In this document: positions 2,709 through 11,823 of the stretch, one piece after another | How the letters are laid out: the number at the start of each line of letters is the position of its first letter | Position numbering within the stretch: position 1 is the first letter of the stretch | Origin: PVC group bacterium | Lineage (GTDB): Bacteria > Auribacterota > Erginobacteria > Erginobacterales > Erginobacteraceae | Assembly (NCBI GenBank): GCA_043804695.1 | Contig: JAZDIV010000075.1 | Coordinates: forward strand, 1 to 11,823 | DNA length: 11,823 bases | Reading direction: 5' to 3' | Made by a program: the position numbers and the translations under genes | The notes under the pieces: model-generated | What the model was told of the DNA's origin: nothing | The model's database searches: none | The model's input: only the letters and a program-made list of their open reading frames with translations

Positions 2709-3998
2709 ATGACCGGAGTATCCTACAAAAGGGTCTTTTCCCTGATCGCGGTCTGCTCCGCCGCCACCGCAGGCCTCCACCGGGCCCACGCCGGTTCCCC
2801 TCTGGATCCATTTATCAACGGGGCATTTCACGGGAAGTTCCGGACCTATTATATCAATCGTGAGTTCAACAAGATCGGGGGAGAGCCCGAGCGCCGGATC
2901 CAGGAGAGCCTGGCGGCCGGCGGGTGGCTGGGCTATGAGACTGCAGCCTGGTCCGGTCTCAGCCTGGGGGCGGTGATCTACACCTCCCAGGGGGTCCTGG
3001 TCAACAACCCCAACTTCGGCGGGGGCGGGATCCTGGGGCCGGATAACGAAAGCTACAGCTCCCTCGGGCAGGCCTACCTTCAGTACCTTCTCAAAAATAC
3101 CACGCTCCGGCTCTACCGGCAGGGTATCAACTCCCCCTTCATCAACGACTACGACACCAAGATGACCCCCCGCACCTGGGAGGCATACACTCTGTATAAT
3201 CGCGACATTCCGGACGTCACGCTGACCACCTCTTTTATCCGCCAGATCAAGGGCTGGTACGAAACCGATTTCCAGTACATGGGCGAGTTCGCAAACAATA
3301 ACGGAACCTACCAGGTGACCAAAACCAATATTCCCGTGTCTCTGGCCGGGGCGGTCTGGACGCCGGCCGATAATTACAAGTTCCAGCTCTGGGATTACTT
3401 CGCTTACGAGTATTTTAACGGTGCCTATCTGCAGGGAAATGCTTCCTGGCCGCTGACTGACGACGGACTCTCTCTGGGGCTGGCTCTCCAGGGATGGACA
3501 CAGCGCTCCGCGGGCGAGGAGGTCGGGGGTGATTTCAGCACCTGTTTCGGGGGGGGAGAGATTGACCTCGGCTGGAAGTGCTGGACGATCAGCCTGATCT
3601 ATACCGTCACCGACCGGGGTTCCCGCGTGGTCAACCCCTGGGGGAACTCCTTCAGCTTCGCCTCCATCTTCGAGGAGGATTTTGACTATGCCGGTGAGGA
3701 GGCCTTCGTGGTGGGGCTGGAGTACGATTTCTCGGAGACGCTGCTCGATGGGCTGACGGCATCGGTCTATGTCTGCAACGGCGACACCCCGGCCTCCGGG
3801 CCCGGCGCGACGCCGAGCCAGAAAGAGTATGATTTTTTTATCAAGTACCGCCCGGATCCCGACCTCGAGGGACTGCACCTGAAGATCGAGGGAGCGGTCG
3901 TTGATACCGAGCAGTCGTTCCCCGAGGGCGAGGACTATCACGATATCCGTTTTATCTTCAACTATGACTTCGGCTTCGGGATCAAGCCGAAGACCTGA
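2709..3998 (+). CDS. OprD/Occ-family outer membrane porin
   Basis: Signal peptide ending AHA; family-like segments GKFRTYYINR, GGWLGYET, LGQAYLQY, RQGINSPFINDYDTKMTPRTWEAY; terminal strand IRFIFNYDF; AGGAAG upstream. Confidence 0.82.
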   Translation: MTGVSYKRVFSLIAVCSAATAGLHRAHAGSPLDPFINGAFHGKFRTYYINREFNKIGGEPERRIQESLAAGGWLGYETAAWSGLSLGAVIYTSQGVLVNNPNFGGGGILGPDNESYSSLGQAYLQYLLKNTTLRLYRQGINSPFINDYDTKMTPRTWEAYTLYNRDIPDVTLTTSFIRQIKGWYETDFQYMGEFANNNGTYQVTKTNIPVSLAGAVWTPADNYKFQLWDYFAYEYFNGAYLQGNASWPLTDDGLSLGLALQGWTQRSAGEEVGGDFSTCFGGGEIDLGWKCWTISLIYTVTDRGSRVVNPWGNSFSFASIFEEDFDYAGEEAFVVGLEYDFSETLLDGLTASVYVCNGDTPASGPGATPSQKEYDFFIKYRPDPDLEGLHLKIEGAVVDTEQSFPEGEDYHDIRFIFNYDFGFGIKPKT

Positions 3999-4010
3999 TA
4001 ATAAAGAATG

Positions 4011-4162
4011 AACGTCCAACATCCAACGTCAAACATCCAACGATTTGTAGGGGCGAACCCCCGTGTTCGCCCGGTGGTGATAAAAATAACGCCCAATATC
4101 AAACACCGAACACCGAACATTGAACATCGAACATCGAACGTCGAACGTCCAGCATTGAACAT
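4011..4162. repeat. Degenerate heptamer arrays (AACRTCS)
   Basis: About 4.5 units at 4011-4042 and about 10 units at 4095-4162. Confidence 0.88.
4047..4072 (+). repeat. GTAG-tagged REP-like palindrome
   Basis: GTAG followed by stem gggcgaac/gttcgccc with a 6-nt loop. Confidence 0.75.
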
Positions 4163-4250
4163 AAGGGGGATGAAAAGTCGGGGAAACAATTCGCGCAATT
4201 TGTGTAATTCGTAGTTCTTTTAAGGAGGGTAAGGGTACCCTTAGTGTTAA

Positions 4251-5876
<1,626 letters not shown>

Positions 5877-5888
5877 GAAAAGAACGAC

Positions 5889-5978
5889 CATCGAACGTTC
5901 AACGTTCAACGAACCGGATGGGAAAAGCATGAACGTCCCACATCAGTCTGATCCGTCGGATCCGACCAATCCGTCTGA
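5889..5978. repeat. Heptamer (aacgttc) and nonamer (tccgtcNga) degenerate arrays
   Basis: aacgttc x2 at 5894-5907; tcagtctga tccgtcgga tccgaccaa tccgtctga at 5943-5978. Confidence 0.8.
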
Positions 5979-6034
5979 TAGATTATTTAATAAACTGCAT
6001 GATTAACGGTAAAATCCAAACCAGGAGGTATGCC

Positions 6035-7501
6035 ATGCCGGAAGACATCGCTGTAAAAATGGGACGGGACGCGGCCGGAGGACTGGGCGCCAAGAAGTAC
6101 AAGGGCCTGGTCTATGTCGTCGCCTTCACCGCCGCCCTGGCCGGTCTCCTCTTCGGCCTCGACATCGGGGTCATCTCGGGAGCGTTGAAATTTATCGCCA
6201 AGGCGTTCTCGGCCACCACCCTTCAGCAGGAGTGGGTGGTCAGTTCGCTCCTCTGGGGAGCGGTGCTGGGGACACTTCTCAGCGGGGCAATCTCCAAGAG
6301 GTACGGGAGGAAGAATACCATTCTCCTGTCGGCGGTGATCTTCGCCCTGGGAGCGATCCTCTCCATGCTCTCCCAGTCAATCGGGATTCTGATCGGCTGC
6401 CGGGTCTTTCTGGGGCTGGCGGTGGGGATGGCGTCATTCACCGCTCCGCTTTACCTCTCGGAGATCGCGCCCCGGGGAATCCGCGGCGCCCTGATTTCGA
6501 TGTACCAGCTGATGATCACGATCGGGATCGTCCTCGCCTTCCTGAGCGACACTTTCTTCTCCACCTATTTCAAATACCACGGTGAGGCCGGCGGACACTG
6601 GCGGATCATGCTCGGGATCCTGGTCATTCCGGCGACCATCATGTTCATCGGGGTCTTCTTTCTCCCCGAGAGTCCCCGCTGGCTGCTTCTGAAAGGCAGG
6701 AAAAAGGCCGCCGAGCGGGTGCTGCACCGGGTCAGGTCAACCGAGGAAGAGATCGTCCAGGAAGTGGCGGAGATCGAGGCCAACCTGGAGCAGGAACAGG
6801 CCGGCTGGAAGATGTTCAAGAGAAACAAAAATTTCCGCCGGGCGGTCTTTCTCGGGATCGGTCTTCAGATCATTCAGCAGCTGACCGGGATCAACGTGGT
6901 CATGTACTACGCGCCGAAGATATTCCAGGCCGCGGGATTCGCCGGCACCGCCCAGCAGATGTGGGGAACGGTCCTGGTGGGGGTGATCAACGTCCTGGCC
7001 ACCTTCATCGCCATCGCTTTCGTGGATCGGTGGGGCCGCCGGCCGATCATGTACACCGGCTTCGTTGTCATGGGCATATCCATGTGCATCGTCGGCATCG
7101 CCATGCCCGACCAGGCCCAGCTGGCCGCGGCCGCCGGACAGATCCCGACCCGCGCCTTTATCTCCATCGCGGGGCTTCTCACCTTCATCATCGGTTTTGC
7201 CGCCAGCGCCGGGCCGATCATCTGGGTGATCTGCTCCGAGATCTACCCGCTCTCCGGACGCGACTTCGGCATCACCTGCAGCACGGCCACCAACTGGATC
7301 GCCAACGGGATCGTCGGTCTGACCTTTCTCTCGCTTCTGCAGGGGATCGGCCCCACGGCCACCTTCCTGCTCTATGGAGGAATCGAGGTGCTCTTTATCA
7401 TCTTCTTCCTGTTCTGGGTACCGGAGACGAAGGACGTTTCCCTGGAGAAGATCGCTCAGAACCTGCTCGCGGGGAAGAAGCTTCGGGATATCGGCCGTTA
7501 A
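6035..7501 (+). CDS. galP: Sugar porter family MFS transporter (GalP/AraE-like sugar:H+ symporter)
   Basis: LLFGLDIGVISGAL, YLSEIAP, PESPRWL, QQLTGINVVMYYAP, DRWGRRP, PETK motifs. AGGAGG at 6023-6028 before ATG 6035; adjacent to galK. Confidence 0.9.
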   Translation: MPEDIAVKMGRDAAGGLGAKKYKGLVYVVAFTAALAGLLFGLDIGVISGALKFIAKAFSATTLQQEWVVSSLLWGAVLGTLLSGAISKRYGRKNTILLSAVIFALGAILSMLSQSIGILIGCRVFLGLAVGMASFTAPLYLSEIAPRGIRGALISMYQLMITIGIVLAFLSDTFFSTYFKYHGEAGGHWRIMLGILVIPATIMFIGVFFLPESPRWLLLKGRKKAAERVLHRVRSTEEEIVQEVAEIEANLEQEQAGWKMFKRNKNFRRAVFLGIGLQIIQQLTGINVVMYYAPKIFQAAGFAGTAQQMWGTVLVGVINVLATFIAIAFVDRWGRRPIMYTGFVVMGISMCIVGIAMPDQAQLAAAAGQIPTRAFISIAGLLTFIIGFAASAGPIIWVICSEIYPLSGRDFGITCSTATNWIANGIVGLTFLSLLQGIGPTATFLLYGGIEVLFIIFFLFWVPETKDVSLEKIAQNLLAGKKLRDIGR

Positions 7502-7545
7502 TTTTTCTCCCCTCCAGCGGAAACGCTGGAGGGAAGAAAAATTAA
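7498..7545. other. Long GAAA-tetraloop hairpin between galP and galK
   Basis: 22-bp stem with one mismatch; core ccctccagcg-gaaa-cgctggaggg. Confidence 0.8.
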
Positions 7546-7580
7546 TTACGAAATTGCTCCACAGGCGTTGATTTTTCGCA

Positions 7581-8732
7581 ATGGAGAAGGGGCAAATCAT
7601 ACAGCGGTTCAACCGGCATTTTGCCGGAATACCCCGCGTCTTCGCTGCCCCGGGGCGGGTCAACCTGATCGGTGAGCACACCGATTACAATGACGGCTTC
7701 GTCCTCCCGATGGCTCTCGAGTATATGACAGCCGTTGCCGTCTACCCCCGCTCCGACCGGATGGTGGAGTCGCATTCGGTGAACCTGGACGACTCGGTCG
7801 TCTTCTCCCTGGACGAGAACGATCACCGACGCGGCCACTGGTCGGATTACATTGCCGGTGTGGCCCGGGTGCTGGAGCTCTCCGGCTTTCGCATGCCCGG
7901 AGCGGATCTCCTGATCGAGAGCACTGTTCCCGTCGGGGCCGGCCTTTCCTCATCCGCCGCACTCGAGGTCGCCACGGCCCTGGCTTTTCTCTCCACCGTC
8001 AATGGAGAATGTGCCCCGGAAGAACTGGCAAAGCTCTGCCGGCGGGCGGAGAACGAGTTTGTGGGGATGAACTGCGGGATCATGGACCAGTTCATCTCCG
8101 TCTGCGGGAAAAAGGGCCATGCCCTTTTCCTGGACTGCCGGTCGCTCGATTACCGGCAGGTTCCTCTCCCTTCCGACCGGGTTTCCGTGGTCGTCGGCAA
8201 CACTATGGTGAAGCACGAACTCTCCGGATCGGAGTACAACCGGCGGCGCGCCGAGTGCGAGGAAGGGGTGGCACTCCTCCGGGATATCTATCCCTCCATC
8301 ACCGCCCTCCGTGACGTCTCGCCGGAAGAACTGGCGGAGTGCGAAGGATCGCTCCCGGAGACCGTCAGGAAGCGATGCCGACACGTCATCACCGAGGACA
8401 GGCGGGTCCTGAACTCGGTGGCGGCGCTGGAGGAGGGCGACCTGGAACGGTTCGGCTCCCTGATGAACGCCTCCCACGAGAGCCTCCGGGACGACTACCA
8501 GGTGAGCTGCGGGGAGCTGGACATCATGGTCGAACTGGCCCGACAGGTCCCCGGATGCCTGGGCGCCCGGATGACCGGTGGCGGCTTCGGCGGCTGCACC
8601 GTCAACCTGGTCGTGGTCAAGGCGGTCGATGATTTCCGCTCGGCCGTTCGTGATGGCTACCGGAAGGCCGTCGGCCGGGAGCCCGAGATCTATGTTTCGT
8701 CCCCCGCCGACGGCGCCCGGGAACTACCATAG
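7581..8732 (+). CDS. galK: Galactokinase
   Basis: GRVNLIGEHTDYN signature, PVGAGLSSSAA (GHMP ATP loop), CGIMDQF, GARMTGGGFGGC. Confidence 0.97.
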   Translation: MEKGQIIQRFNRHFAGIPRVFAAPGRVNLIGEHTDYNDGFVLPMALEYMTAVAVYPRSDRMVESHSVNLDDSVVFSLDENDHRRGHWSDYIAGVARVLELSGFRMPGADLLIESTVPVGAGLSSSAALEVATALAFLSTVNGECAPEELAKLCRRAENEFVGMNCGIMDQFISVCGKKGHALFLDCRSLDYRQVPLPSDRVSVVVGNTMVKHELSGSEYNRRRAECEEGVALLRDIYPSITALRDVSPEELAECEGSLPETVRKRCRHVITEDRRVLNSVAALEEGDLERFGSLMNASHESLRDDYQVSCGELDIMVELARQVPGCLGARMTGGGFGGCTVNLVVVKAVDDFRSAVRDGYRKAVGREPEIYVSSPADGARELP

Positions 8733-8850: not shown

Positions 8851-9050
8851 GAAAGAACTTCAAATTCCTAAATACAGAGAGGAAGTACTTGGTAATGAAG
8901 AATCAGTTCATTATGCTGTCGCTGAACATGATACCTTGATGCAAACTGAATTGTGGACAGAGTAGCATGACAAATACCCCTCGACTTTTGTTGTTTTTTT
9001 CTCGAAATCGGGTAAAATAGTTACTAGTCAGTCCATAATTGTATAGACAT

Positions 9051-9128
9051 GTCATTGCGAGGAGCGAAGCGACGAAGCAATCTCAACTTTATGCACAACA
9101 AGAGATTGCTTCGCTTCGCTGCTATGAC
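9051..9128. repeat. CGTC/TGTC-tagged REP-like palindromic element
   Basis: gtcattgcgaggagcgaagcgacgaagcaatctc ... gagattgcttcgcttcgctgctatgac; perfect 12-bp inner stem 9073-9084/9102-9113 with near-complementary termini. Confidence 0.85.
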
Positions 9129-9265
9129 CGCAATTGTTGATGTTAATATTACAACGGTCGGATTAATAACTGATGCCAGCATTTCTTTCACAACTTATCG
9201 GATATTCATTTTTAACCGGTTTTTACGTTTTAAATGACCGGAATTTTTTCTGAAAGGAGGAGGAG

Positions 9266-11823
9266 ATGAGAAGATTGATGGTTGTTGTCGGCGGGGCATT
9301 AATCATCGGGTTGCCGACTCTGCTTCCGGCCCAGGTTCAGCTTGATTATTCCACCTACCTCGGGGGGAGTGGTGATGATAAGGGTCTTGGAATTACCCTG
9401 GGGCCGGGCGGCGAGGCGTATGTCACCGGGTATACCAACTCCTTAAATTTCCCAACTGAAAATCCATACCAGGGGGGATTTCAAGGAGGATTTTGTGACG
9501 TCTTCGTGAGCAAGCTCGGCTCGACCGGCTCCACTCTCTTCTTCTCCACCTACCTCGGGGGGAGTAGTTCTGATGTGGGGTTTGGCATCACACTGGGGAC
9601 GGGCGGCGAGGCGTATGTCACCGGGTATACCACCTCCTTAAATTTTCCCACTGAAAATCCCTACCAGGTGGGATTTCAAGGTGGAATTTATTACGCTTTC
9701 GTGAGCAAACTCGGCTCGACCGGCTCCACTCTCTCCTTCTCCCCCTACCTCGGGGGGGTTAGTGATGATTGCGGGAAGGGAATTACCCTGGGGACGGGCG
9801 GCGAGGCGTATGTCGCCGGGTATACTTACTCCACGAATTTTCCCACTGAAAATCCCTACCAGGGGGGATTTCAAGGAGGATTTCTTGACGTCTTCGTGAG
9901 CAAGCTCGGCTCGACCGGCTCCACTCTCTCCTTCTCCACCTACCTCGGGGGAGGAGGTCAAGATTGGGGTCTTGGAATTACCCTGGGGACGGGAGGCGAG
10001 GCGTATGTCACCGGGTATACCACCTCCTTAAATTTCCCAACTGAAAATCCCTACCAGGGGGGATTTCAAGGAGGTTCTGACTCCTTCGTGAGCAAGCTCG
10101 GCTCGACCGGCTCCACTCTCTCCTTCTCCACCTACCTCGGGGGGGGTGGTAATGATAACGGGTATGGCATCACCCTGGTTACGGGCGGCGAGGCGTATGT
10201 CACCGGGGGTACCTTCTCCACGAATTTTCCCACTGAAAATCCATACCAGGGGGGATTTCAAGGAGGAGAGGCTGACGTCTTCGTGAGCAAACTCGGCTCG
10301 ACCGGCTCCACTCTCTCCTTCTCCACCTACCTCGGGGGGGTTAGTGATGATTGCGGGAAGGGAATTACCCTGGGGACGGGCGGCGAGGCGTATGTCACCG
10401 GGTATACCGCCTCCTTAAATTTTCCCACTGAAAATCCATACCAAGGGGGATTTCAAGGAGGAACTTCTGACGCCTTCGTGAGCAAGCTCGACTCGACCGG
10501 CTCCACTCTCTCCTTCTCCACCTACCTCGGGGGAGGGGGTTATGATTGGGGACGTGGCATTACCCTGGGGACGGGCGGCGAGGCGTATGTCACCGGGGAT
10601 ACCGACTCCACGAATTTTCCCACGAAAAATCCCTACCAGGGGGGATTTCAAGGAGGAACTTATGACGCCTTCGTGAGCAAGTTGAGGCAGATTACGCCGA
10701 CGCCGACGCCGACACCGGTGGGAGAGGTCTTCGAGGCGCCGATTGTGGTCACGCTGAACTACCACAGCAGCGGGGACACCACGGGTTTCGCCAACAACTA
10801 CAACCATTACAGCTGCTTCTTTTTCGAAGAGACCGGCCGAGACGTGGTCTATTCATTTAACGTGAGCGCCCCGGGGACGCTGTCGATTTTGCTCAGTAAC
10901 CTTTCCGGTGATCTCGACCTGATCCTCTGCGACGCGCCCGATTGGAAGGATTGCGTGGACAGCAGCACGCGCTCGGGAACGAGAAACGAGGAGATCACGT
11001 TCGCCGCCGGGACGGGGACGTTCTACACGGTGGTGGACGGCTTCGGCGGCGCCTTCGGCCCCTATGACCTTGACATCGCGATCACCACGCCGACGCCCAC
11101 ACCGACGCCGACGCCAAGCGCGACCCCGACGCCGAGCGCGTCCCCGGCGGCGACGCCCCGGGAGACGCCAACCCCGGAAAAGACCCCGACGCCTCTCACC
11201 ACCCGCACCCCCTCCCCCACCCCGACCTGCGGGCCGACCGTGGCCCAGCTTCGCTTCGTCCTCCAGTCGGGGGATTATGACGGCGACGGGACCGCCGACA
11301 TCGGCATCTTCCGCCAGAGCGGCGGGCTCTGGGCGATCCGCGGCGTCACCCGGGCCTACTTCGGCGGCGCCGGCGACGTGCCCGTCTCCGGCGACTACGA
11401 CGGCGACGGCACCGCCGACATCTCCATCTTCCGGCCGACCCGGGGCCTCTGGGCCATCCGGGGGGTCTCCCGGATCTACTACGGCCTCCCCGGGGATTAC
11501 CCGGCTCCCGCCGATTACGACGGCAACCGCACCGCCGATGTCTGCGTCTTCCGGGACGCCGTCGGGCTCTGGGCGGTCCGGGGCGTCACCCGGGCCTACT
11601 TCGGGGCGACCGGCGACCGGCCGGTCCCCGGCGACTACGCGGGCGGGGGAACCGACGCCATCGGCATCTTCCGCCCCTCCTCCGGGACCTGGGCGGTCCG
11701 CGGCGTCACCCGGGTCTACTTCGGCGGTTTCGACGACTGGCCGGTCCCCGGCGACTATAACGGCAACGGGAACTTCGAGGTGGCGATCTTCCGCCCCTGG
11801 TCGTCCGGCCTCTGGGCGGTCCG
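9266..11823 (+). CDS. Large secreted/surface protein (3' truncated): signal peptide, 7x SBBP beta-propeller, PT linker, PPC-like domain, PT linker, FG-GAP/VCBS-like repeats
   Basis: Manual translation: AGGAGGAGGAG then ATG 9266, MRRLMVVVGGALIIGLPTLLPAQVQLDYSTYLGG..., open for more than 850 codons to the window end. Probably absent from the ORF track because there is no stop codon in the window. Confidence 0.93.
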   Translation, partial: MRRLMVVVGGALIIGLPTLLPAQVQLDYSTYLGGSGDDKGLGITLGPGGEAYVTGYTNSLNFPTENPYQGGFQGGFCDVFVSKLGSTGSTLFFSTYLGGSSSDVGFGITLGTGGEAYVTGYTTSLNFPTENPYQVGFQGGIYYAFVSKLGSTGSTLSFSPYLGGVSDDCGKGITLGTGGEAYVAGYTYSTNFPTENPYQGGFQGGFLDVFVSKLGSTGSTLSFSTYLGGGGQDWGLGITLGTGGEAYVTGYTTSLNFPTENPYQGGFQGGSDSFVSKLGSTGSTLSFSTYLGGGGNDNGYGITLVTGGEAYVTGGTFSTNFPTENPYQGGFQGGEADVFVSKLGSTGSTLSFSTYLGGVSDDCGKGITLGTGGEAYVTGYTASLNFPTENPYQGGFQGGTSDAFVSKLDSTGSTLSFSTYLGGGGYDWGRGITLGTGGEAYVTGDTDSTNFPTKNPYQGGFQGGTYDAFVSKLRQITPTPTPTPVGEVFEAPIVVTLNYHSSGDTTGFANNYNHYSCFFFEETGRDVVYSFNVSAPGTLSILLSNLSGDLDLILCDAPDWKDCVDSSTRSGTRNEEITFAAGTGTFYTVVDGFGGAFGPYDLDIAITTPTPTPTPTPSATPTPSASPAATPRETPTPEKTPTPLTTRTPSPTPTCGPTVAQLRFVLQSGDYDGDGTADIGIFRQSGGLWAIRGVTRAYFGGAGDVPVSGDYDGDGTADISIFRPTRGLWAIRGVSRIYYGLPGDYPAPADYDGNRTADVCVFRDAVGLWAVRGVTRAYFGATGDRPVPGDYAGGGTDAIGIFRPSSGTWAVRGVTRVYFGGFDDWPVPGDYNGNGNFEVAIFRPWSSGLWAV
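9350..10684 (+). repeat. Seven tandem 195-bp (65-aa) SBBP repeats
   Basis: Units start at 9350, 9545, 9740, 9935, 10127, 10322, 10517 (unit 4 is 192 bp; unit 7 ends at VSKL). Consensus STYLGGxxxDxGxGITLGTGGEAYVTGxTxSxNFPTENPYQGGFQGGxxDxFVSKLGSTGSTLSF. Confidence 0.97.
11084..11227 (+). repeat. Pro/Thr-rich linker (a shorter one lies at 10694-10717)
   Basis: TTPTPTPTPTPSATPTPSASPAATPRETPTPEKTPTP..., encoded by acgccg-type hexamers. Confidence 0.9.
11270..11823 (+). repeat. 120-bp (40-aa) FG-GAP/VCBS-like repeats, at least 5 units
   Basis: GDYDGDGTADIxIFRxxxGLWAIRGVTRxYFGxxGDxPV units start at 11270, 11390, 11510, 11630, 11750; DxDGDG Ca-binding-type motif. Confidence 0.9.

Follow-up and report, generated by a model that had tools for sequence, protein, structure and literature searches.

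What keeps the seven repeats of one predicted secreted protein nearly uniform while three short patches differ from repeat to repeat is the question raised by contig JAZDIV010000075.1, designated here as C75. The window, that is, the whole stretch of DNA analysed, is the entire 11,823-base contig. It belongs to a metagenome-assembled genome (MAG) of a PVC group bacterium, which is 2.97 Mb long, in 155 contigs, and 88% complete. The gene concerned is an open reading frame (ORF) that runs off the end of the contig, and its first part codes for seven SBBP repeats, the blades of a predicted propeller. The reading preferred here, with a probability of roughly 60%, is that this part of the C75 protein is the putative N-terminal ligand-binding head of a secreted modular exoprotein, namely an SBBP propeller with uniform blades in which loop positions are held different by selection. 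The features in question are the following:

9266..11821, + strand: ORF of the modular secreted protein, 852 residues in the window, 3' end open at the contig edge
9266..9334, + strand: predicted signal peptide of about 23 residues, with no lipobox Cys (read off the translation; cleavage site inferred)
9347..10684, + strand: seven SBBP repeats (blades) of 65 codons, from Tandem Repeats Finder (TRF), Pfam PF06739, the codon table and AlphaFold
9368..9388, + strand: variable patch 1 of blade 1, unit codons 8-14, with 8, 9, 10, 12 and 14 variable and D11 and G13 fixed
9431..9445, + strand: variable patch 2 of blade 1, unit codons 29-33, with 29, 31 and 33 variable and T30 and S32 fixed
9491..9502, + strand: variable patch 3 of blade 1, unit codons 49-52, with D51 almost fixed

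TRF recognised a single array at 9350-10681 with a period of 195, 6.8 copies, 85% matches and a score of 1892. The in-frame units start at 9347, 9542, 9737, 9932, 10124, 10319 and 10514; one codon is missing in unit 4, and unit 7 ends at codon 57. Units are 64-65 residues long and 84.6-88.3% identical as DNA, and their mean amino-acid identity is 0.80 (77-86% when compared with unit 1). Invariant are 38 of the 65 alignment columns. Amino-acid variation is clustered at codons 8, 9, 10, 12 and 14, at 29, 31 and 33, and at 49-52, while changes confined to one unit fall on codons 1, 3, 19, 20, 27, 38, 43, 58 and 65. The initial annotation, made from the sequence alone, had placed the variation in three patches of each repeat, and this is borne out, codons included: all seven patch strings that it quoted are present. 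Patch 1 recurs every 195 nt, or 192 nt past unit 4, and patches 2 and 3 are likewise present in each unit. Among the patch residues, S, D, Y, G, V and W are frequent.

Between units, nucleotide identity is 0.565 at the 12 variable codons versus 0.936 at the 53 scaffold codons. Codon 33 exists in two forms that differ at all three bases, with TTA in units 1, 2, 4 and 6 and ACG in units 3, 5 and 7. The scaffold had been described as homogenised, down to most silent sites. As regards the invariant columns and the overall nucleotide identity, this description stands, but the silent sites are not near-identical, as the scaffold synonymous difference is 0.18-0.21 per site, or about seven silent differences per unit pair. 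Of the 12 positions with the highest entropy in three independent arrays, 10 were within the codon set defined on the C75 array, the other two being codons 45 and 58. Such agreement between arrays shows that the pattern is not due to chance.

AlphaFold2, run on an alignment of 30 sequences, predicted a seven-bladed propeller with 28 strands (7 × 4), a predicted local distance difference test score (pLDDT) of 94.9 and a predicted template modelling score (pTM) of 0.94, in agreement with the fold proposed initially. In each unit, the strands comprise codons 64-5, 10-18, 24-30 and 50-57, and the loops codons 6-9, 19-23, 31-49 (a long loop of 19 residues) and 58-63. According to this strand map, patch 1 covers the loop between strands 1 and 2 and the start of strand 2, patch 2 the end of strand 3 and the start of the 19-residue loop, and patch 3 the end of the long loop and the start of strand 4. 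All three patches thus adjoin the 6-9 loop and both ends of the 31-49 loop, which connect strands 1 and 2 and strands 3 and 4, respectively. Two such loops of an antiparallel four-strand meander lie on one side of the blade, so the patches of the seven blades would ring one face.

The top face of related propellers is the side that contacts the ligand or substrate, and the patch-bearing face of the model is probably this top face. On this assignment, patch 1 would belong to the D-A loop together with the first part of strand A, and the B-C loop would have patches 2 and 3 at its ends. Three points were used for it. In a profile of homologs, the hairpin of strands 2 and 3 weakly resembles the NHL/PknD/Pizza motif (E 0.008-0.04), and the small residues G13 and G15 of strand 2 fit an innermost strand. 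The third is the CylK propeller, which has unusually long internal loops and Ca-binding blade-connecting loops on its top face, where the active site is located (PMC8916777). The patches had been assigned from the outset to the d-a and b-c loops of the top face; that they flank two loops of one face is supported by the model, while the naming of the loops and of the face depends on topology, the weak NHL motif match and the CylK description. By analogy with CylK, it may be speculated that the conserved D11 and D51 within the patches are Ca ligands.

Foldseek matches of the model are seven-bladed propellers, and the best solved neighbour is the CylK propeller, with a template modelling score (TM) of 0.76-0.80, 21-22% identity and E 2e-22. 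A sequence search of solved structures with the propeller gave no match, a profile of the 30 homologs gave only weak NHL/Pizza/PknD motif matches (E 0.008-0.7) against the same structures, and a profile of the seven units gave three matches at chance level. The CylK C-terminal propeller (PDB 7fh6, 7ron) is the closest solved fold, and the long internal loops are on what is also its functional face (PMC8916777). With such a neighbour, and with sister proteins of the same C-terminal module being mostly hydrolases, the propeller could itself be an enzyme, CylK-like or a Vgb-type lyase, with catalysis on the top face and variable residues tuning the substrate range. This is quite improbable. CylK is a two-domain intracellular biosynthetic enzyme, and its active site, with catalytic Arg/Tyr/Asp, needs an N-terminal Ca-binding beta-roll domain (Arg105) packed on the propeller (PMC8916777). 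The C75 head has no detectable sequence match and no N-terminal Ca-binding domain; its mature protein starts at blade 1, the first strand beginning 3-4 residues into it, and the likeness to CylK is one of fold only. An active site also needs a few conserved residues in asymmetric positions, but conservation is lowest at the positions of the presumed top face, and none of the polar residues stands out as conserved in a particular blade. No sequence match to any solved enzyme was obtained.

Proportions of non-synonymous (pN) and synonymous (pS) differences per site were counted by the Nei-Gojobori method for all 21 unit pairs of the C75 array. The 12 variable codons have pN 0.495 and pS 0.203, with a pN/pS of 2.44, and the 53 scaffold codons have pN 0.025 and pS 0.177. 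The codon set defined on C75 was then applied unchanged to other arrays, with variable-codon pN divided by scaffold pS as the statistic and arrays with scaffold pS <0.3 regarded as young. The first set contains 18 arrays, four of them young including C75; the metagenome set 80 rows from 78 loci, with seven young rows (L092 and L093 duplicate L091); and a further set 25 arrays, four of them young. The ratio is 2.82 in the paralog on contig C134, 2.67 in L012 (genome G011) and 1.95 in L014 (genome G001). Young arrays from metagenomes gave 2.19 (L047) and 1.79 and 2.00 (the two L091 arrays), and those of the further set 4.27 (L122), 1.38 (L124), 1.62 (L123) and 1.65 (L121). The statistic therefore exceeds 1 in 10 of 10 young arrays other than C75 (range 1.4-4.3), and the dN/dS check at patch codons, proposed together with the initial annotation, came out in its favour. 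When minimum changes were counted on spanning trees, non-synonymous changes per patch site exceeded synonymous changes per scaffold site by a factor of 2.4-3.1; in each of the four arrays treated in this way, the binomial p was between 5e-5 and 2e-4.

These ratios bear on a simpler explanation, that is, a recently amplified propeller whose unconstrained loops are the first to drift, with no selection for diversity and no special binding role. The variable positions are indeed generally unconserved positions of the family, and the scaffold pS of SBBP arrays grades without a break from 0.11 to 0.77, as is expected from repeated birth and ageing of arrays. Drift, however, cannot lift non-synonymous above synonymous differences, and all 11 young arrays are at 1.4-4.3, with p of about 1e-4 in four of them. 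We regard this explanation as unlikely, and its remaining support and the remaining evidence against it come from comparison of the blades with each other.

For this comparison, 61 units from nine arrays of three genomes were compared on scaffold nucleotides alone. The nearest scaffold neighbour was in the same array for 53 of the 61 units, at the same blade number of another array for one, and elsewhere for seven. Scaffold motifs are private to each array, and between C75 and C134 the identity is 0.820 for the same blade and 0.814 for different blades. Grouping of this kind is known from highly repetitive propellers, in which the blades of one propeller resemble each other more than they do those of homologous propellers, and silent and non-silent differences build up after amplification; such propellers arise independently in close relatives and in many propeller lineages (PMC9218822). 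Pereira and Lupas read it there as independent amplification from single blades, while it is read as concerted evolution in the fungal NOD-like receptor (NLR) literature (PMC4986451). Independent amplification also predicts the grouping of blades by array, and the independent origin of repetitive propellers in many lineages agrees with loops that merely drift.

Mosaicism of the array points the other way. In the four-gamete test, 73 of 136 informative-site pairs of the C75 array are incompatible, and adjacent sites are less incompatible than in permutations (0.378 vs 0.538, P = 0.004). Units 3 and 6 have in common an identical tract of 71 nt that includes patch 1, yet are unlike in patches 2 and 3. 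Exchange between blades after amplification is therefore favoured, which speaks against loops drifting on a merely amplified array. C75 has the within-array likeness of the propellers described in PMC9218822 and adds to it this mosaicism and dN > dS at defined loop codons. The paper is silent, in its main text, on SBBP, hypervariable positions, concerted evolution and positive selection.

In its last blade and whole 3' part, the C134 paralog (C134:40798-43403) has 87-100 identical positions per 100 nt to C75, compared with 78% in the propeller, so conversion between the paralogs is suggested. At codons 45, 48 and 50 it has a two-blade periodicity, with units 1, 3, 5 and 7 set against units 2, 4 and 6, as if a two-blade unit had been amplified. 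Just one case of two-blade alternation was reported by Pereira and Lupas (PMC9218822).

A known precedent for uniform repeats with a few diversified positions is found in fungi. The WD40 repeats of HET-E, HET-D and NWD proteins combine concerted evolution with positive diversifying selection at a few interaction-surface positions (Paoletti 2007, as cited in Dyrka et al. 2014, PMC4986451). This parallel had been drawn for the C75 array from the start, and the analysis agrees with it: concerted evolution is seen in the 53 of 61 units nearest to their own array, and diversifying selection at few codons in the pN/pS of 2.44 and in the ratios above 1 of the other young arrays. The identity of at least 85% over at least 100 residues used for HET-E-type repeats (PMC4986451) is not reached, with the mean of 0.80 being borderline. 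The HET-E-type proteins are also intracellular NLRs with a variable repeat number, whereas the C75 array is closed at seven blades and belongs to a secreted protein without a NOD domain. Seven units were present in most arrays examined. SBBP repeats, highly repetitive propellers, and concerted evolution with diversifying selection are each already in print. No paper describing the concerted-plus-diversifying mode for SBBP repeats was found in the literature searched, and judging by titles and abstracts, none of the SBBP-propeller papers found deals with blade evolution.

Variable codons might instead be written by targeted hypermutation, for example, by a diversity-generating retroelement (DGR). 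The genome does contain one reverse transcriptase gene (C23:30881-31513), but it is on another contig, and no template copy was found, as at the DNA level the unit matches only the C75 array and the C134 paralog. Differences occur at all four bases and are not confined to adenine, and the variable codons are present seven times per gene in register, not as one pair of variable and template regions. The array was rejected as a DGR target, and the chance that such a mechanism writes it is next to nil.

In a fragmented MAG, the array, its unit order or its patch combinations might also result from mis-assembled repeats, paralogs or strains. The genome is split into 155 contigs, the gene runs off its contig, and C75 and C134 break at the same residue in a shared repeat. 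The sole run found, of groundwater metatranscriptome contigs containing 0.05 of the words, leaves 9190-10994 uncovered. The longest exact repeat in the array is, however, 71 nt, so every 72-mer of the array is unique, and the contig ends overlap by 137 nt, which suggests that assembler words were longer than 71. The frame is intact over 852 codons, and exactly seven blades are predicted at the pLDDT given above. The same pattern is also present in many independent assemblies, for example, in P0115 on a 4.87-Mb contig (mean blade identity 0.75) and on contigs of 115-550 kb in relatives. Assembly is hardly a probable source of the pattern.

Several points weigh against a diversified binding head. 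The variable codons were picked after inspection of the C75 array, so its own ratio is inflated, and the ratios of 1.4-4.3 in the independent arrays are modest. Since the variable positions are the least conserved ones family-wide, part of the signal is plain lack of constraint. Arrays with scaffold pS >0.5 give ratios of 0.68-1.13, because both site classes are saturated there. Codon-usage selection or gene conversion holding down synonymous sites may lift the ratio with no positive selection, and the evidence for selection comes from counting methods. Many arrays retain about 70% blade identity at near-saturated silent sites (e.g., pS 0.54-0.60 with identity 0.66-0.70), and purifying selection alone therefore explains much of the homogenised look of the family. 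Strain mixing during assembly of a short-read-type MAG could mimic part of the mosaicism. The clustering of the patches on one face and the identity of this face as the top one are drawn from the topology of the model. The antibody-like variation proposed initially gained no support at the level of a population or a cell, as a close ortholog or allele was not found, the best identity being 67% among 41 related genomes and 59% among 78 metagenome loci. Gene neighbourhood is not conserved, and the C134 paralog has a papain-like protease upstream instead.

Directly supported are the repeat anatomy, fold and family, dN > dS at the patches, the concerted pattern, mosaicism, and the shared C-terminal module described below. 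From these we infer the identity of the face, binding, a ligand and surface attachment. If the C75 propeller is a binding head, its blades would be kept alike through recent amplification and ongoing gene conversion between the 195-nt repeats, together with purifying selection, while selection would keep about 11 positions per blade different in or beside two loops of one face. The ligand bound by this face would be a glycan or protein carried by particles, by prey or by other cells, and specificity would be varied between blades and between paralogs on a fixed scaffold. Linkers rich in Pro/Thr and a PPC domain join the head to the C-terminal FG-GAP/VCBS-like propeller, the latter probably being a common anchor or targeting module. 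The initial annotation had suggested an adhesin or receptor, which may be taken as a putative function of the propeller.

SBBP propellers are among the commonest unexplained secreted-protein domains of uncultured bacteria, archaea and phages, and no solved structure can be reached from them by sequence search. Should selection favour diversity at about 11 positions per blade on one face, that face is the functional one, which would give a concrete map for ligand screens and for binder engineering on a very regular, consensus-like scaffold. The C75 array would also add a secreted bacterial case to the concerted-plus-diversifying mode, documented so far mainly for intracellular fungal NLR repeats. 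A wider and rather doubtful proposal is that Auribacterota-like bacteria maintain binders of this extracellular propeller type as a germline repertoire, with up to about 50 SBBP propellers in a 3.4-Mb genome, and obtain new specificities by blade amplification, scaffold homogenising and reshuffling of short loop cassettes among blades and paralogs through gene conversion. Were this so, the repertoire would represent a secreted prokaryotic counterpart of HET-E/NLR or variable-lymphocyte-receptor recognition diversity, displayed on a shared C-terminal propeller ending in PVTR. The Auribacterota paper PMC9324843 does not mention propeller, FG-GAP, VCBS, adhesin, SBBP or secreted.

The predicted signal peptide at the start of the ORF supports the secretion proposed initially, and the homologs P0098, P0107 and P0120 have the same signal-peptide layout. 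Behind the propeller, the protein continues as follows:

10685..10723, + strand: Pro/Thr-rich linker (translation)
10847..11038, + strand: match core of a PPC (bacterial pre-peptidase C-terminal) beta-sandwich (Pfam PF04151, residues 528-591)
11100..11245, limits approximate, + strand: second, longer Pro/Thr/Ser-rich linker (translation; TRF short repeats at 11083-11146)
11270..11821, + strand: C-terminal propeller module of FG-GAP/VCBS-like 40-residue repeats, 4.6 of them in the window (TRF period 120; PF01839)

The PPC domain scored 32.9 bits with PF04151 (cut-off 25.9). The C-terminal module scored 25.5 bits with PF01839 (cut-off 22.1), forms a period-120 repeat according to TRF, and has the repeats of about 40 residues with the D-x-D/N-G-D-G loop that are characteristic of FG-GAP/VCBS propellers. 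Over its final 137 nt, the window matches the end of contig C42 with 100% identity, and the ORF probably continues there on the reverse strand for 57 residues up to an end in PVTR. By itself, C42 carries the frame 57 residues on and then stops after PVTR. The join of C75 and C42 is ambiguous because the C134 paralog ends at the same point. At 11687-11823, the C134 end, the C42 end and C63:748-1323, four contigs break or overlap inside one 3' module that is nearly identical in all of them (93-100% identity). This module is common to at least four closely related genes, so the true partner of each end is ambiguous.

The C-terminal module was found with our own hidden Markov model in 82 ORFs of the genome, and 60 of them have at least four repeats; among these 60, 32 end in PVTR and eight in PATR. 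A complete C-terminal propeller consists of six to seven 40-residue repeats. In sister proteins, the module matches PF01839 and PF13517. The heads of 20 out of 55 module carriers lacking SBBP were scanned. Three S8 subtilases, a C1 papain-like peptidase and a C25 peptidase with a GDSL lipase were recognised among them, as well as GH38, GH9, GH123-like, transglutaminase core, NHL, lectin-like, BNR and LTD heads; in six of the 20, no head family was recognised. Given its presence in dozens of secreted hydrolases, the C-terminal module probably serves them in common for anchoring or targeting. It looks like a phylum-specific anchoring or sorting module, and the C-terminal PVTR propeller would be a candidate common anchor of the exoproteome of the phylum.

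The C75 protein matches PF06739 with 68.4 bits, compared with a gathering score of 20.5, and a genome scan with this family gave six single-unit matches above the cut-off on the C75 contig. More than 7,998 SBBP homologs were found, and thousands of homologs from bacteria and archaea bear the name 'SBBP repeat-containing protein'. Among full-length homologs, P0098, P0107 and P0120 are the nearest (64-65% identity); they are built alike except that they lack the PPC domain, and their last residues are PATR or PVTR. Homolog P0077, with 60% identity, is assigned to Candidatus Auribacterota by its source. Among described SBBP proteins, Leptospira LipL53-type lipoproteins (NF047494) are alike in repeat family, in seven units of about 64 residues per propeller, and in secreted or surface location. 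LipL53 binds extracellular matrix. The C75 protein does not reach the LipL53 equivalog score, with 21.3 bits against the cut-off of 400, and its signal peptide has no Cys. Most of the listed SBBP homologs have DUF7948 before the propeller, whereas the C75 protein lacks DUF7948 and has PPC and the C-terminal FG-GAP-like propeller.

Eight ORFs of the genome have SBBP repeats, and seven of these eight also have the FG-GAP-like module. SBBP propellers are strongly expanded in the same order, with 49, 43, 24 and 20 matches in four genomes, the first two of which are 3.4 Mb. An SBBP match was obtained in 16 of the 41 related genomes searched, and in these 41 genomes SBBP propellers were not found in most other families of the phylum. 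ORFs of 1,300-1,700 residues with two or three tandem SBBP propellers were noticed on G013:C22 (L013) and on G011:C7, C52 and C127 (L126, L127 and L140), several of these genes occurring in clusters.

The propeller gene is separated from the genes upstream by an AT-rich spacer of 533 nt. Outside the protein, the spacer contains this element:

9041..9125, no strand assigned: dispersed hairpin repeat of 85 nt, with 157 blastn hits on 80 contigs and a predicted energy of -32.9 kcal/mol

The Rfam search gave no RNA family within the window. The hairpin core at 9049-9086 is matched by about 80 unrelated contigs of the groundwater metatranscriptome. The preceding co-oriented run of genes at 2709-8732 codes, according to Pfam, for an OprD-family porin, a LamB-type porin, a sugar transporter of the major facilitator superfamily and a galactokinase, and this run is likely a galactose or oligosaccharide uptake locus. 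Where the OprD-like porin gene is followed by the LamB-like one, the spacer has tandem repeats at 4011-4042 (14-nt unit, 2.3 copies) and 4098-4162 (7-nt unit ATCGAAC, 9.3 copies).

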